Source: an uncultured Chlamydiae bacterium (GTDB lineage Bacteria; Chlamydiota; Chlamydiia; Chlamydiales; 2-12-FULL-49-11). Taken from it: a DNA stretch of 64,000 nucleotides. The stretch is taken from assembly GCA_937996705.1 (NCBI GenBank), contig CALKUQ010000042.1, forward strand, positions 38,298-102,297, given 5' to 3'. This document shows positions 41,068 through 45,002 of the stretch, piece after piece; positions within the stretch are counted from its first letter, which is position 1; every line of letters begins with the position of its first letter. The notes beneath the pieces are model-generated. The model was not told where the DNA came from. It made no database searches and saw only the letters and a list, made by a program, of their open reading frames with translations. The translations under genes were made by a program, and so were the position numbers.

Positions 41068-41763
41068 CTAGGGCTTTTTGAGAACAAAGATACCAATTCC
41101 ATTCCACCAAGTTTCAGCATCATTAATGCCATTAGAGTGAAGTGAGGCTTCGAAAAGAATCGTGTAATTAAGTTTTGCAAAAGCAGCTCTTGTCCCCTCA
41201 TGAACGGACGGCCAATCCCAATCGTCAATCACTGCAATAAAAGTATCAGCAAAAATCGGATCGTAATAAGTAAAGGCCATCTCTTGAGAGAGAGCGGTAT
41301 GGTTCCCGTCGTAAAAATAGATGTTAATGGGAGTGGAAATATTGGAGAGGTTAAACTTAAAGGAGTCTGAGTTGAAAAAGCTGTAATTAATCGATTTTTT
41401 TAGAAAAGTTTTGCAGTTTAAACGAAAGGAGTGCTCTGGTCCTCCAAATTCGGACCAATTATCTATTGCTGTTGCACTTACGATTTTCTTGTGGTTTTTA
41501 TAGAGAGCAGAAATCCAGGTAGATCCTTTCCAGACTCCTACCTCTAAATAATGAGTGTTTGAAAGGGAGCAGAGATTGTTTAGTAAGTGCCGTACTTTGG
41601 GGCTTGACATCCCTTCAAGGGCTAGAACTTGAGGAGAAAGAGAGGAAATGTTGTCATTTGCCTGTAAAATTGAATTTTCTACGTGCTTAGTATAATCATC
41701 CCCAATTTCGGAGCAAAGTGTTGCTACGAAAATGCAAGAGGCGGAAAGTAATAATTTATTCAC
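41068..41763 (-). CDS. Class I SAM-dependent methyltransferase-like protein (TylF/Methyltransf_24-like) with N-terminal hydrophobic signal/anchor
   Basis: It starts MNKLLLSASCIFVATLCS and contains YLEVGVWKGSTW, IYFYDGNHT and AVIDDWDW. Confidence 0.6.
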   Translation of the reverse strand: MNKLLLSASCIFVATLCSEIGDDYTKHVENSILQANDNISSLSPQVLALEGMSSPKVRHLLNNLCSLSNTHYLEVGVWKGSTWISALYKNHKKIVSATAIDNWSEFGGPEHSFRLNCKTFLKKSINYSFFNSDSFKFNLSNISTPINIYFYDGNHTALSQEMAFTYYDPIFADTFIAVIDDWDWPSVHEGTRAAFAKLNYTILFEASLHSNGINDAETWWNGIGIFVLKKP

Positions 41764-41788
41764 TAGGTTCTCCTATTTTTTAATTTTT

Positions 41789-42433
41789 TTAATAATCTGC
41801 TTGGGAAGTGGCTCTCCATCCAAAAACTCTTGCTTTACAATGGAGAGTTTCAAGAGAGCTGCATGTAAGTTTTTGATCTATAATATAATTGGCAATCAAT
41901 GTTTCCAGATTAATCAATTTTTCCTCCATTTCTTTAAGGTCTATTGAGTCGAGGGCTTGCTTAAAATGTTTCCAGCGAAGCGCTATACAACCTGTGAATA
42001 CCTCGTTCCCAATCCACTTTGCAAAAGCATCGCACTCAGGATGTTGGAGAATTGTATTCAATAAAAAATTATCATATAAGAGATAGCGGCCTGTTAATTT
42101 GATTACGATATCCTCGTCATTAAAAGGAAGGAAAGGAATGCATTTTTTAATTGCCAGTACTTCGTTTACGCCAATATTTTGGATGGTAGGGTCGTTTGTT
42201 TGGGGATATAAAACTTGAGAGGATAATTTATCAAAAAAAGAGCGTTTGATAGGGGTAGATTCAATAATCCAAGGATTCATTCCTAAACGTTTTAAAGAGC
42301 TTAGGCTTTCTTTATACTCCTGCTTACGAAGTTGATATTGTTCCGATATAAGAGCGCTTGTAAAAATTATATGAGTCTGTGCAGTGCATAAATTAAATAG
42401 TGAAAGAAGAAATAAAACTAAGAGATTGTTCAT
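41789..42433 (-). CDS. Hypothetical protein with N-terminal signal/anchor, translationally coupled to the upstream GT
   Basis: It starts MNNLLVLFLLSLFNLCTAQ. The ATGA overlap at 42430-42433 couples it to the upstream gene. I recognised no motif. Confidence 0.55.
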   Translation of the reverse strand: MNNLLVLFLLSLFNLCTAQTHIIFTSALISEQYQLRKQEYKESLSSLKRLGMNPWIIESTPIKRSFFDKLSSQVLYPQTNDPTIQNIGVNEVLAIKKCIPFLPFNDEDIVIKLTGRYLLYDNFLLNTILQHPECDAFAKWIGNEVFTGCIALRWKHFKQALDSIDLKEMEEKLINLETLIANYIIDQKLTCSSLETLHCKARVFGWRATSQADY

Positions 42434-43329
42434 GATTGCAAACCTTTTTTAATATTGTACACTTTTTGAAACCAGTAGGGAGCATATAATTTTTCTCTAG
42501 ACCATTCCTTGTTAGAAAATTTTGCATAAGTTTTCTTTAAGAGAGCAGTTGTGACCTCCTCCCAATTGTTAATAATTAGTATAGGAAGATCTTCATAAAG
42601 CGGATCTAAAGAAGAGCTTTCTACAATAGGAAAGCACCCCAAGAGAAGTGCCTCCCAAGTTCTGTGGCAGTCAAGACCGTTTCCTTTCGGACTTACAACA
42701 AAAACTGATTTGGATAGATCTTGTAAATAAAGGGGATACGATTTTTGGTTTTCGAATTTTAAACCTAGACTCTTGAAATAGTTAATGCAATTAACTCTTT
42801 CTGGCCGAGGAGTTATATTGATATAAATGAAGTTTTTTCTCTTTTTTTTTATTAATGCGGTTGGAATTATGGAATCTAAAAGAGTTGTATTTCCATGAGC
42901 CCAATTTTTATTTGCAAGACCGATTGGAATAGGAATTAATTTTGAAGTGGGCGCTCTGTCGATGTTCTGGACAAACCATGCTGCAATTTTATCACTCTCT
43001 AAAAGAGATTCATATTTTCCTGGTAAAGATTGATCTGATCCATATCCATAATTAGACGTAATAAGAATCACTTTTTCTTGAATTTTAGGAAGATATTCTT
43101 CTATAAATAGATCAAGGCATAAGGAGTCGACATAGATAGTATCCCCAAGTTTGACTAATTCAGGATCAAACGAAGTTTCATTTCCAGAGTAATCTTTGCC
43201 AAGTAATTTCCAATCAGAAAAATGAACCCAAGTAAGACCTGATAAATAAGGAAAACTAGTCTGATATTGAGAGGAAAAAATAGAGGAAAAAATTAGAGAA
43301 AAAAAGGAAATAGATGTGCAAATATTCAT
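42430..43329 (-). CDS. Putative glycosyltransferase (exostosin/GT47-like C-terminal motif) with N-terminal signal/anchor
   Basis: It starts MNICTSISFFSLIFSSIFSS. SPKGNGLDCHRTWEALLLGCFPIV resembles the P.G....R..eA...GCIPV motif. Confidence 0.5.
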   Translation of the reverse strand: MNICTSISFFSLIFSSIFSSQYQTSFPYLSGLTWVHFSDWKLLGKDYSGNETSFDPELVKLGDTIYVDSLCLDLFIEEYLPKIQEKVILITSNYGYGSDQSLPGKYESLLESDKIAAWFVQNIDRAPTSKLIPIPIGLANKNWAHGNTTLLDSIIPTALIKKKRKNFIYINITPRPERVNCINYFKSLGLKFENQKSYPLYLQDLSKSVFVVSPKGNGLDCHRTWEALLLGCFPIVESSSLDPLYEDLPILIINNWEEVTTALLKKTYAKFSNKEWSREKLYAPYWFQKVYNIKKGLQS

Positions 43330-43350
43330 AAAATTTGTTAGAATTTTAGC

Positions 43351-44187
43351 ATGATTAAATTAATTAGTTCAATGATTTTTTGTTCAGGTCTCTATGCTTC
43401 AGAGTCTGATTGTCCCTCTTCAGTTACAGATATAAATTGGTATACCGATTTTTGTAAGTCTGCGGCAGAAGATGATATTCTTTTTGCAAATTTTAAAAGA
43501 TCTCCCCTTTATACTGTCGTTTTAGAGCATGTAACATACAATTTTGGAAAACAGTATCTTGAACTAATTAAGAAAAACTATCCTCTCTTACTTCTAAATG
43601 CGGAACAGTTTAGAACAAATGATTTAATTGGAAATCCTTTTGTGTTTCGGTTTGGAAAATATGGTATTTTTTCACCTACAACACTACGGTATATGAAAAT
43701 AGCTGGGGATATAGGCTTAATGGATATTGAGTTAAAGGAAGCTAAAATTATTGAAATTGGAGCAGGCTATGGAGGGCAGTGTAAGGTTTTGTCCGATTTT
43801 ACCGGATTTAAGGAGTATACAATAGTTGATCTTCCAGAGGTCCTTTTGCTCGTGAAACGATATCTTGATGCTTTCGATATTAAAAATGTTAAACTTTTAA
43901 CCCCAGATCAGATCGATAGTTGTGGGGATTACGATTTAGTTATTAGTAATTATGCATTTTCTGAGTGCTACAAGTTGATGCAAGATGTTTACTTAGATCG
44001 TATTATTAAAAATTCTAAGCATGGGTATATGATTCACAATGGGGATGCTTATGATCATGAAAGTTTTTATCATACAGAAGATCTTCTCCAGTTTTTGACT
44101 GAGTATGGCTATTTCCCCAATGTGCACCCTGAAATACCACAAACAGGGGGAGATATAGAGCACCCTAATGTAGTGTTGACCTGGTAG
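43351..44187 (+). CDS. SAM-dependent (sugar O-) methyltransferase-like protein with N-terminal hydrophobic segment
   Basis: It starts MIKLISSMIFCSGLYAS. It has the GxGxG motif IIEIGAGYGGQ and an acidic residue after beta-2 (YTIVDLPE). Confidence 0.6.
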   Translation: MIKLISSMIFCSGLYASESDCPSSVTDINWYTDFCKSAAEDDILFANFKRSPLYTVVLEHVTYNFGKQYLELIKKNYPLLLLNAEQFRTNDLIGNPFVFRFGKYGIFSPTTLRYMKIAGDIGLMDIELKEAKIIEIGAGYGGQCKVLSDFTGFKEYTIVDLPEVLLLVKRYLDAFDIKNVKLLTPDQIDSCGDYDLVISNYAFSECYKLMQDVYLDRIIKNSKHGYMIHNGDAYDHESFYHTEDLLQFLTEYGYFPNVHPEIPQTGGDIEHPNVVLTW

Positions 44188-44192
44188 AATCA

Positions 44193-45002
44193 ATGAATTT
44201 GCTCTTGATTCTTTTTAGTTTGCCTTTGTATGCCATGACCTCATTTATAGATGGGTTTAATTTACAACCCGGTGAAGAGGTTGAGAAAAATTCCCTTTTT
44301 TGGGAGTGTAATCGCCTTTATGAGGATTATAAACAGTATGCTCTAGTCGAAAATGAATATCAAATTCCTAAGAATATTCACTTTATATGGCTGGGCAGCC
44401 CTTTACCTAAGAAATGTGCTGAATTTATCCAAAGCTGGAGACTATTTCATCCCGATTGGAATATAAAAATTTGGACAGATAAAGATGTAGCCGCCCTTAA
44501 TCTAATTAATAAAGTTGCTTATAGAAAAGCATCTAATTGGGGGCAAAAATCAGATATTTTAAGATTGGAAATACTGTATCGTTACGGAGGGGTTTATGTT
44601 GATACCGATTTTGAGTGTCTCTCAAGTTTTGATGAACTACATAAAAGTTGCCAGTTTTATGCAGGTGTCTCAAGAGATGGTACAGCTGTTTTCAATGGAC
44701 TGATGGGTGCAAAAGTCGGGCATCCCATTCTTTATGAGTCTATTTTGCAATTGAAAACTGTTCCTTATCAGAGAGATTTTCATAAAATTATGGAAGAGAC
44801 TGGTCCTTATTATTTAGGGAGAATGGTAGAGCGTTATGCTCTTACTTGTCCAAAGGGTTCGGTTGTTATTTTTCCTCCAATCTTTTTTTATCCTTTTCCA
44901 GGGACGTGCCGGAATGATGAGAGTAAGGTGCCCTCTGAGTTCAGAGTAGATGAGACAATGGCAATTCATTATTGGTCATGTAGTTGGCAGAAAAAATCTT
45001 AG
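44193..45002 (+). CDS. GT32-type glycosyltransferase (Gly_transf_sug, DXD motif) with N-terminal signal/anchor
   Basis: It starts MNLLLILFSLPLYAMTS and contains IPKNIHFIWLGSPLP...SDILRLEILYRYGGVYVDTDFECL. Confidence 0.75.
   Translation: MNLLLILFSLPLYAMTSFIDGFNLQPGEEVEKNSLFWECNRLYEDYKQYALVENEYQIPKNIHFIWLGSPLPKKCAEFIQSWRLFHPDWNIKIWTDKDVAALNLINKVAYRKASNWGQKSDILRLEILYRYGGVYVDTDFECLSSFDELHKSCQFYAGVSRDGTAVFNGLMGAKVGHPILYESILQLKTVPYQRDFHKIMEETGPYYLGRMVERYALTCPKGSVVIFPPIFFYPFPGTCRNDESKVPSEFRVDETMAIHYWSCSWQKKS

Follow-up and report, generated by a model that had tools for sequence, protein, structure and literature searches.

A divergent islet of five genes

We analyzed a 64,000-nucleotide stretch of DNA from an uncultured Chlamydiae bacterium (contig CALKUQ010000042.1, positions 38,298 to 102,297 of the forward strand; hereafter the window), and focused on an islet of five adjacent genes, here called A to E, that encode predicted glycosyltransferases and S-adenosylmethionine (SAM) methyltransferases with hydrophobic N-termini. 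A first-pass annotation had placed five open reading frames (ORFs) here, in a three-gene minus-strand operon and a two-gene plus-strand operon that diverge from a 21-bp spacer, and the ORF list of the window agrees with this layout exactly. The features are as follows.

40890-40920, minus strand: intrinsic terminator downstream of A, at the end of the C-B-A operon; 13-bp stem, 5-nt loop and TTTCTTTTC tail (T-run)
41068-41763, minus strand: gene A, 231 aa, GTG start; class-I SAM methyltransferase (Methyltransf_24); signal-peptide-like aa 1-18 (nt 41763-41710)
41789-42433, minus strand: gene B, 214 aa; family not named, fold predicted to be GT-A-like (nucleotide-diphospho-sugar transferase); signal-peptide-like aa 1-19 (nt 42433-42377)
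42430-43329, minus strand: gene C, 299 aa; GT114, A075L/RXYLT1-like; signal-peptide-like aa 1-20 (nt 43329-43270)
43330-43350, no strand: divergent spacer of 21 bp between the start codons of C and D, read from the sequence
43351-44187, plus strand: gene D, 278 aa; NanM-type putative sugar O-methyltransferase; signal-peptide-like aa 1-17 (nt 43351-43401)
44193-45002, plus strand: gene E, 269 aa; GT32-type DXD (D137-T-D139) GT-A enzyme; signal-peptide-like aa 1-17 (nt 44193-44243)

On sequence grounds, the two short operons carry three glycosyltransferase-like and two methyltransferase-like enzymes, with co-transcription predicted for each operon. The start codon of B overlaps the stop codon of C as ATGA, and a Shine-Dalgarno sequence (AGGAG) precedes the GTG of A. 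This was the only clear Shine-Dalgarno sequence found; B is coupled to C, and none was clear for C, D, and E, so the starts of these genes were settled through homologue conservation instead. Because the spacer between C and D measures only 21 bp, any promoters must overlap the 5′ end of the opposite gene; one extended -10 promoter-like site on the minus strand (43372-43343) is no more than a consensus match. The terminator, also proposed in the first-pass annotation, is real, as judged by its stem and T-run.

The genes on either side of the islet are common chlamydial housekeeping genes (hrcA-grpE-dnaK, NAD-glutamate dehydrogenase, a P-type ATPase, VIT1, and serS). Windowed GC content confirms the impression that the islet is more AT-rich than its flanks: it has 35.3% GC versus 39.6% for the window, which makes it the window's most AT-rich stretch, within the bottom 1% of windows of equal size. 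Among individual genes, GC is lowest in B, C, and D. The five genes have no paralogues in the rest of the window, and the five proteins are encoded identically in two other assemblies. The only Rfam matches of the window are two tRNA genes (10938-11010 and 58197-58270, both on the minus strand); neither borders the islet, which therefore carries no tRNA-linked integration signature.

Gene C matches glycosyltransferase family GT114

Gene C had been annotated as a GT47/exostosin-like glycosyltransferase, of which the glycosyltransferase part stands and the GT47 label does not. The Pfam Exostosin_GT47 profile gives 19.0 bits, below its cutoff of 33.4, and the RXYLT1_C profile scores better (E-value 4e-9). 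Among PDB sequences, a phmmer search aligns C residues 98-292 with A075L of chlorovirus PBCV-1 (E-value 6.4e-29), and a profile of 35 C-family sequences matches A075L with an E-value of 4.8e-39. CAZy family GT114 was founded on A075L, a GT-B beta-xylosyltransferase that inverts, needs no metal, and uses UDP-Xyl, with Asp73 as catalytic base and donor contacts at Asn148, Arg158, Asn202, and Arg208; its description moves the group from GT47 to GT114, names bacterial GT114 homologues merely in passing, and reports that the characterized member requires an oligosaccharide acceptor (PMC11571054). In our alignment, residues D99, N171, R178, N217, and R223 of C correspond to D73, N148, R158, N202, and R208 of A075L. 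Four of them (D99, N171, R178, and R223) are kept in 119-120 of 120 bacterial C homologues, and N217 is kept in 85 of the 120. The sequence match to A075L and the conserved catalytic residues thus assign C to GT114, and homology to the solved structure indicates that C is likely an inverting GT-B enzyme and a candidate beta-xylosyltransferase.

The family is large, with 1346 homologues of C. One bacterial GT114 subclade, 50-58% identical to C, has a polar N-terminus (P0033, P0035, P0037, P0040, P0042, P0045, P0048, P0051, P0052, P0057, P0059-P0061, and P0063); these proteins may be cytoplasmic or follow another delivery route.

Genes E and B encode predicted GT-A and GT-A-like enzymes

The annotation of E as a GT32 DXD glycosyltransferase proved sound. 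Its Pfam PF04488 match (Gly_transf_sug, GT32) reaches 58.1 bits against a cutoff of 23, both aspartates of the DXD motif (D137 and D139) are invariant in the family alignment, and the AlphaFold model (pLDDT 93, pTM 0.90) finds its best Foldseek matches in SetA (E-value 2e-10), Och1, PaToxG, and YeGT. Together with the model, these data identify E as a GT32 GT-A enzyme with a DXD motif, which we take as retaining in the proposal below.

Membership of E in the toxin family of SetA and the large clostridial toxins was considered and rejected. We took as the criterion a full catalytic domain of ~380-540 aa with the toxin-specific helical subdomains; PDB alignments with the SetA and TcdA/B domains cover only E residues ~46-115, E covers only positions 1-55 of the 382 in the TcdA_TcdB profile, and TM-scores normalized to toxin length are 0.2-0.3. 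Since the similarity is partial and Och1 fits equally well, the toxin-like reading of E was downgraded.

The same matches nevertheless raise an alternative for the islet as a whole: its products could be host-directed effectors, exported by Sec and then released, through vesicles or the type II secretion route, to the inclusion lumen or the host cell, where they would modify host proteins or glycans like SetA, Lgt, and the clostridial toxins. Such a role would fit the toxin glycosyltransferases among the best matches of E (Legionella SetA, TcdA/B, PaToxG, and YeGT), the restriction of the families to bacteria inside protists (Chlamydiota and Dependentiae), and the ankyrin-repeat protein encoded in the window, and chlamydial Sec-dependent proteins that reach the host are known. 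However, the toxin similarity of E is limited to residues 54-115, the glycan-acting GT32 enzyme Och1 matches as well, and the gene content of related loci, to which we return below, bears on this alternative too.

Gene B had been left as unknown. No Pfam or NCBIfam profile matches it, in keeping with that label, but its AlphaFold model (pLDDT 88, pTM 0.84) suggests a GT-A-like fold and refines it. Foldseek searches of the PDB and BFVD libraries with this model return the LH3 glucosyltransferase domain, LgtC, GlyE, BoGT6a, and viral GT25, GT2, and Fringe-like proteins; the TM-scores are 0.5-0.64, and nucleotidyltransferases are found beside the GT-A enzymes among the matches. An exhaustive profile search collected 562 representative relatives. 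In many of them the B domain is part of a fusion, C-terminal to a GT-D, GT114, or FkbM-methyltransferase domain. The family alignment has two invariant motifs, D106-E-D108 and KLTGRY, the former placed before a strand and not after it. Judging by the model, B is probably a third, uncharacterized glycosyltransferase-like enzyme.

Genes A and D are SAM methyltransferase-like

Both A and D score above the cutoffs of methyltransferase families, in line with their earlier annotation as SAM methyltransferase-like. Protein A matches Pfam PF13578 (Methyltransf_24) with 30.4 bits against a cutoff of 26.3, a small margin, over the whole profile (1-105 of 105); homologues of A fused to GT114 domains in proteins of ~500 aa are taken as support for the assignment. 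Protein D matches NCBIfam TIGR04371 (NanM-type) with 61.4 bits against a cutoff of 44, in the C-terminal half of the profile only (positions 147-273 of 273), and Pfam Methyltransf_12 weakly; no family covers the N-terminal half of D. A fusion of C and D also exists (P0112 in L023). PDB sequence searches with A and D returned no useful relatives. Glycosyltransferase and methyltransferase assignments are thus confirmed in the islet (for B as a predicted fold), and none of the five proteins matches an NCBIfam or Pfam family of lipopolysaccharide (LPS) or lipooligosaccharide core or O-antigen synthesis (Waa/Rfa/Wzx/Wzy/WecA-type), so the islet does not correspond to a known cluster of that kind.

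The N-terminal hydrophobic segments are a conserved family trait

The N-termini quoted in the first-pass annotation are correct, and all five proteins start with a hydrophobic stretch. The trait extends to their families: bacterial homologues with a hydrophobic segment ahead of the first conserved motif number 95 of 119 for C, 102 of 119 for E, 15 of 17 for B, 6 of 7 for D, and both of 2 for A, and the segment is present in 54 of 65 mid-length representatives of B. The typical C-family protein begins with M-K/R and a hydrophobic run, followed at once by SSYPYLSG, its first conserved motif. In the nearest homologues of E the segment stands just before ISFEDGFNL (TSFIDGFNL in the E of the window), a conservation that favors the M1 start over the M15 start of an alternative 255-aa gene call. 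For D, an alternative start at M8 would leave a hydrophobic run that is too short relative to the homologues. As judged from these comparisons, the segments are a conserved family trait in Chlamydiota and Dependentiae and not artefacts of misplaced start codons, and the true starts do not lie downstream of them.

To classify the segments we relied on the length of the hydrophobic run, the flanking charge, and conservation. A crude hydrophobicity screen of the window, discarded in favor of these family-wise statistics of hydrophobic region and charge, had picked out 13 of 50 ORFs, some of them with Rossmann N-termini and others for membrane proteins, whereas C and D fell short of its threshold. 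Counted as the stretch free of charged or strongly polar residues, the run has a median length of 13 aa (interquartile range 11-14) and reaches 20 aa or more in 1 of 95 sequences. Charge is about +1 in the N-terminal flank; over the 15 residues that follow the run it is about -0.5 in C and lies between -0.6 and +0.6 across the families. The conserved mature domain of C begins 3-6 residues after the run. A cleavable Sec signal is expected to have a positive n-region, ~7-15 hydrophobic residues, and a polar c-region with small residues at -3 and -1 for signal peptidase I; in length and flanking charge the families fit such a signal in an N-in/C-out orientation, and not a membrane-spanning anchor or an N-out tether. 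Candidate cleavage sites can be seen by eye after CTA (before Q) in B and after YAS (before E) in D. A lipoprotein reading was dropped, as no lipobox was seen by eye in any of the five proteins.

Variation between strains is of the same character. In L001 the signal-coding part of C (5081-5200, against 43270-43329 in the window) contains 24 extra bases with an IFSS repeat, which explain a gene product of 307 aa (8 extra residues) instead of 299 aa. Such variation in length and sequence is typical of a signal peptide, which is constrained in composition only, and not of a folded part of the protein.

One might instead read the segments as uncleaved anchors, either monotopic or N-out/C-in, that keep the enzymes on the cytoplasmic side of the inner membrane. 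There, as in LPS or capsule synthesis, a methylated glycan would be assembled on a carrier, either lipid or protein, with the cell's own cytoplasmic donors. In free-living bacteria, every known GT-A/GT-B glycosyltransferase and SAM methyltransferase does act in the cytoplasm. Hydrophobic runs with a median of 13 aa are, however, too short to cross the bilayer, and a positive N-flank followed by a neutral or acidic C-flank predicts the opposite, N-in/C-out, orientation. We regard a cytoplasmic-face tether as unlikely, although it is the conservative reading, and the viral and genomic comparisons that follow bear on it further.

Giant-virus relatives lack the segment

Relatives of all five families occur in giant viruses. 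Giant-virus contigs contain 544 GT114 relatives with 30-39% identity, and the viral GT114 genes are adjoined by relatives of A (42-43% identity), B, D, and E. The hydrophobic N-terminus is absent from 79 of 82 viral C homologues, from every viral B homologue (these begin directly with the first strand, MIYLIITTS), from the few viral A and D homologues found, and from 8 of 9 viral E homologues. A crude neighbor-joining tree places 206 of 208 bacterial C sequences in one pure clade apart from the viral sequences. The lack of the segment in viral homologues and the separate bacterial clade indicate that the bacterial lineage gained the signal itself, rather than receiving it as an inherited Golgi-type anchor. 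The earlier idea of a Golgi-type topology acquired from a eukaryote or giant virus therefore survives as regards viral kinship, which extends to all five families, but not as regards an inherited anchor. That the cytoplasmic viral enzymes work without any such segment is also a point against the tether.

Related loci in Chlamydiota and Dependentiae

Family C was found at 532 places in a species-representative genome set, and the best 80 of these lie nearly all in metagenome-assembled genomes (MAGs) of Chlamydiota and Dependentiae (TM6/Babeliales). All related genomes are metagenome-assembled; neighbors of C homologues were taken from 79 loci, in which ORF starts are longest-ORF calls and alternative starts were checked only for the sugar-nucleotide enzymes. 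The five families recur together in shuffled combinations (L018, L045, L074, L076, L080, and several Dependentiae loci) and as fusions with a single N-terminal signal, which join C to Methyltransf_24, to D, or to E, and B to GT-D, GT114, or FkbM domains. Co-occurrence and fusion under one signal point to one compartment and one pathway.

In the 79 loci, signal-bearing glycan enzymes are enriched among the neighbors of C homologues; they include GT10, GT11, NodZ-like, and GT2 transferases, a DegT sugar aminotransferase, and one unnamed family that recurs with 29 members in 21 loci. A signal-like extension also precedes the Rossmann GxxGxxG motif in UDP-glucose dehydrogenase (UGD), UXS-like, GDP-mannose dehydratase (GMD), and GER-like enzymes, several of which have no alternative start in between. 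Signal-like segments are found on 12-15 genes in a row, over whole 15-kb stretches, in L080 and in L041, L043, and L053 of Dependentiae; these runs, which include GT2, GT10, GT11, GT32, GT114, B-family, DegT, UDP-glucose dehydrogenase, UXS-like, and GMD-like genes, are much larger versions of the islet. In L003 (8977-13977; Chlamydiae MAG MFD00008.bin.3.143), a C homologue is followed by two genes for Legionella_OMP-family outer-membrane proteins and one for an arylsulfotransferase, possible hints at envelope targets.

These loci weigh on the alternatives in different ways. The presence of the segment on NAD-, pyridoxal phosphate (PLP)-, and NADPH-dependent sugar-nucleotide enzymes, which are easier to picture in the cytoplasm, favors the tether, as does L055, where canonical, signal-less GMD/GER genes adjoin signal-bearing glycosyltransferases. 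On the other hand, a carrier-based pathway is hard to reconcile with the lack of a flippase, priming glycosyltransferase, polymerase, or ligase, none of which was found in the islet (Pfam) or seen in the loci inspected. As for host-directed effectors, the sugar O-methyltransferases, a GT114 enzyme from a family whose characterized member requires an oligosaccharide acceptor, and the multi-enzyme fusions suggest stepwise glycan assembly, and the large loci with their sugar-nucleotide synthesis genes resemble a biosynthetic pathway rather than single effectors; we consider the effector reading improbable.

The closest relative, the sister genome L005, whose flanking proteins are 78-80% identical to those of the window, carries six genes at the same site between the ATPase and glutamate dehydrogenase genes (2984-8741): a methyltransferase, a NodZ-like gene, a gene for a 379-aa product that contains a DTDDDN motif, and genes E, C, and D. 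All six proteins start hydrophobic, one of them counted from an internal Met, and the site also holds a 39-aa remnant of an A-like gene. The differing content at one site indicates a variable hotspot with rapid gene turnover rather than a recent single insertion. The description of the islet as an inserted module is thus apt in that it is AT-rich and bounded by a terminator, but a single insertion is not supported.

The AT-rich composition, the different content of the sister genome, and the 39-aa fragment could also be signs of recent, non-functional or decaying foreign genes of giant-virus or eukaryotic origin, with N-termini that are incidental. This we consider very improbable indeed. None of the five ORFs is broken, and two other assemblies carry them unchanged; the catalytic residues of C and the DXD aspartates of E are (nearly) invariant, the N-terminal trait is kept across hundreds of homologues, and the operons retain their start/stop overlap, Shine-Dalgarno sequence, and terminator.

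A proposed Sec-exported glycan toolkit fed by the host

The reading that we favor, and hold to be somewhat better supported than not, is that the islet encodes a Sec-exported toolkit that builds or decorates a glycan and runs on host nucleotide sugars and SAM. The toolkit would comprise three glycosyltransferases (C, E, and B) and two sugar O-methyltransferases (A and D), each made with a short cleavable-type signal peptide and moved across the inner membrane to a site of action that may be the periplasm, the cell surface, or the lumen of the inclusion. There, C, E, and B would add sugars sequentially to one shared glycoconjugate acceptor, either of the bacterial envelope or of the host or inclusion, and A and D would O-methylate it, with UDP- or GDP-sugars and SAM coming from the host. 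Fucosyltransferase, UGD/UXS, and GMD/GER neighbors elsewhere suggest fucose- and xylose-containing methylated glycans; by analogy with these neighbor genes in related loci, the product may be such a glycan, with parts like the chlorovirus capsid glycan.

Supply of donors is the obvious difficulty, since the extracytoplasmic space of free-living bacteria contains no activated donors. The window encodes a TLC/NTT ATP/ADP transporter (16579-18099, minus strand, 506 aa, Pfam E-value 4e-210), which marks the organism as an energy parasite whose host nucleotides must cross the envelope, so that its extracytoplasmic space would not be donor-free. NAD and SAM, too, are imported by chlamydiae. In the inclusion of Chlamydia trachomatis, host UDP-glucose is brought in and used by secreted bacterial enzymes (PMC4829429). 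By analogy, we think that the donor paradox of extracytoplasmic enzymes may be resolved by lifestyle.

Several observations weigh against an exported toolkit. About 15-20% of C and E homologues have no segment, the N-terminus of C itself contains no K or R, and export and cleavage of the five proteins are predictions from sequence. A disulfide test gave no support: C221 of C is conserved in viral homologues too and C181 varies in distant bacterial ones, so the C181/C221 pair is not specific to the exported clade. L055, with its signal-less GMD/GER, belongs here as well. To our knowledge, there is little precedent for NAD(P)-, PLP-, or SAM-dependent enzymes outside the cytoplasm, and the proposal presupposes usable levels of SAM and nucleotide sugars in the periplasm or inclusion. 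Finally, no acceptor-defining gene was found in the islet. The earlier alternatives of delivery into the inclusion or host and of an unusual envelope glycan pathway are both sub-cases of export that sequence does not separate.

More tentatively, and as a generalization that could well fail, we propose that Chlamydiota and Dependentiae, unrelated phyla living in protists, possess a complete Sec-exported, host-fed nucleotide-sugar- and SAM-dependent glycosylation pathway outside the cytoplasm, whether periplasmic, on the surface, or in the lumen of the vacuole. It would include UGD, UXS, GMD, an aminotransferase, fucosyl-, xylosyl-, and GT32-type transferases, and O-methyltransferases, from families shared with giant viruses of the same hosts and with signals added by the bacteria; the islet of the window would be a minimal example.

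Novelty and significance

The families GT114, GT32, Methyltransf_24, and NanM-type are known, and the B family is unnamed. New, as far as sequence comparison goes, would be a Sec-type signal shared uniformly by GT-A/GT-B, SAM-dependent, and sugar-nucleotide enzymes of both phyla, as opposed to the signal-less giant-virus homologues, and we could not find a description of it in the literature searched. In the limited library available to us, nothing relevant was found on signal-bearing or secreted glycosyltransferases in Dependentiae or environmental chlamydiae, or on exostosin in Parachlamydia.

According to the textbook view, GT-A/GT-B and SAM-dependent steps of bacteria are cytoplasmic because the periplasm contains no activated donors. 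If export is true, host-fed energy parasites break this rule and exhibit a new topology for bacterial glycan synthesis. It would also provide a concrete enzyme set with which environmental chlamydiae and Dependentiae could decorate their envelope or vacuole, for example to mimic or evade protist lectins, and would document gene sharing between giant viruses and bacteria inside the same protists. The analysis further gives a probable function to the B family, with at least 562 representative members, and adds to GT114 hundreds of bacterial members with a distinct N-terminal feature.

Other features of the window

Three further findings concern other parts of the window. An ankyrin-repeat protein of 919 aa is encoded at 4-2763 (plus strand), in an ORF that may be truncated at the window start; effectors of intracellular bacteria often contain such eukaryote-like repeats. 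Two tandem paralogous ORFs of ~310 aa (53463-54401 and 54745-55671, both on the plus strand) have near-identical N-termini (MSLKPVLNSLFFQKVGPANLLLN and MRLEPILNSSFFQKVGPANLLLN) and no Pfam match. An ORF of 1058 aa (29275-32451, plus strand), also with no Pfam match, has a hydrophobic N-terminus and could encode a large exported or surface protein.

Comparison with known systems

One known system close to the islet is the A075L/capsid-glycan machinery of chloroviruses, whose glycan is also O-methylated. C matches A075L and conserves its catalytic base and the donor Arg/Asn residues, and in giant-virus contigs, as in the islet, GT114 genes adjoin relatives of A, B, D, and E. A075L is, however, a soluble cytoplasmic enzyme with no signal (PMC11571054). 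The bacterial C proteins, in contrast, carry a putative Sec-type signal and form their own clade.

A second likeness is to the type-II glycosyltransferases of the Golgi (RXYLT1/TMEM5 and Och1), through the RXYLT1_C match of C, the GT32 match of E, and Och1 as a top structural match. In both settings the N-terminal hydrophobic segment would put the catalytic domain outside the cytosol, and related loci contain GT10, GT11, and NodZ-like fucosyltransferases and UXS-like enzymes. Unlike a Golgi enzyme with its transmembrane anchor of ~20 aa, the bacterial proteins have a segment with a median of 13 aa and no stem region, and C is far closer to viral and bacterial GT114 proteins than to the animal RXYLT1 profile.

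With SetA and the clostridial toxin (GT44-type) domains, E shares the N-terminal nucleotide-binding part (~54-115) and the DXD GT-A fold. It differs from them in its size (269 aa, with no extra helical subdomains), in a Sec-type signal in place of type IV or toxin delivery, and in its setting among glycan-modifying enzymes.

The glycogen enzymes of C. trachomatis reportedly exit by type III secretion and have no Sec signal. Glycogen synthesis in the inclusion lumen by this organism (secreted GlgA, with the host UDP-glucose transporter SLC35D2) is nevertheless a precedent for a bacterial enzyme that depends on a nucleotide sugar and works outside the bacterium on a host donor (PMC4829429). Compared with it, the islet involves other enzyme families, a product that would not be glycogen, and methyltransferases.

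Finally, classical periplasmic glycosylation (PglB/PglL oligosaccharyltransferases, O-antigen ligase, and GT-C enzymes) also transfers glycans outside the cytoplasm, as is predicted here. In the classical systems, the glycan is built in the cytoplasm on a lipid carrier and flipped, and GT-C enzymes act outside. The islet differs in that the putatively exported enzymes are themselves GT-A/GT-B and SAM-dependent; the first-pass annotation had seen no flippase with these genes, and neither a flippase nor a GT-C gene was found in the window by ORF list and Pfam.

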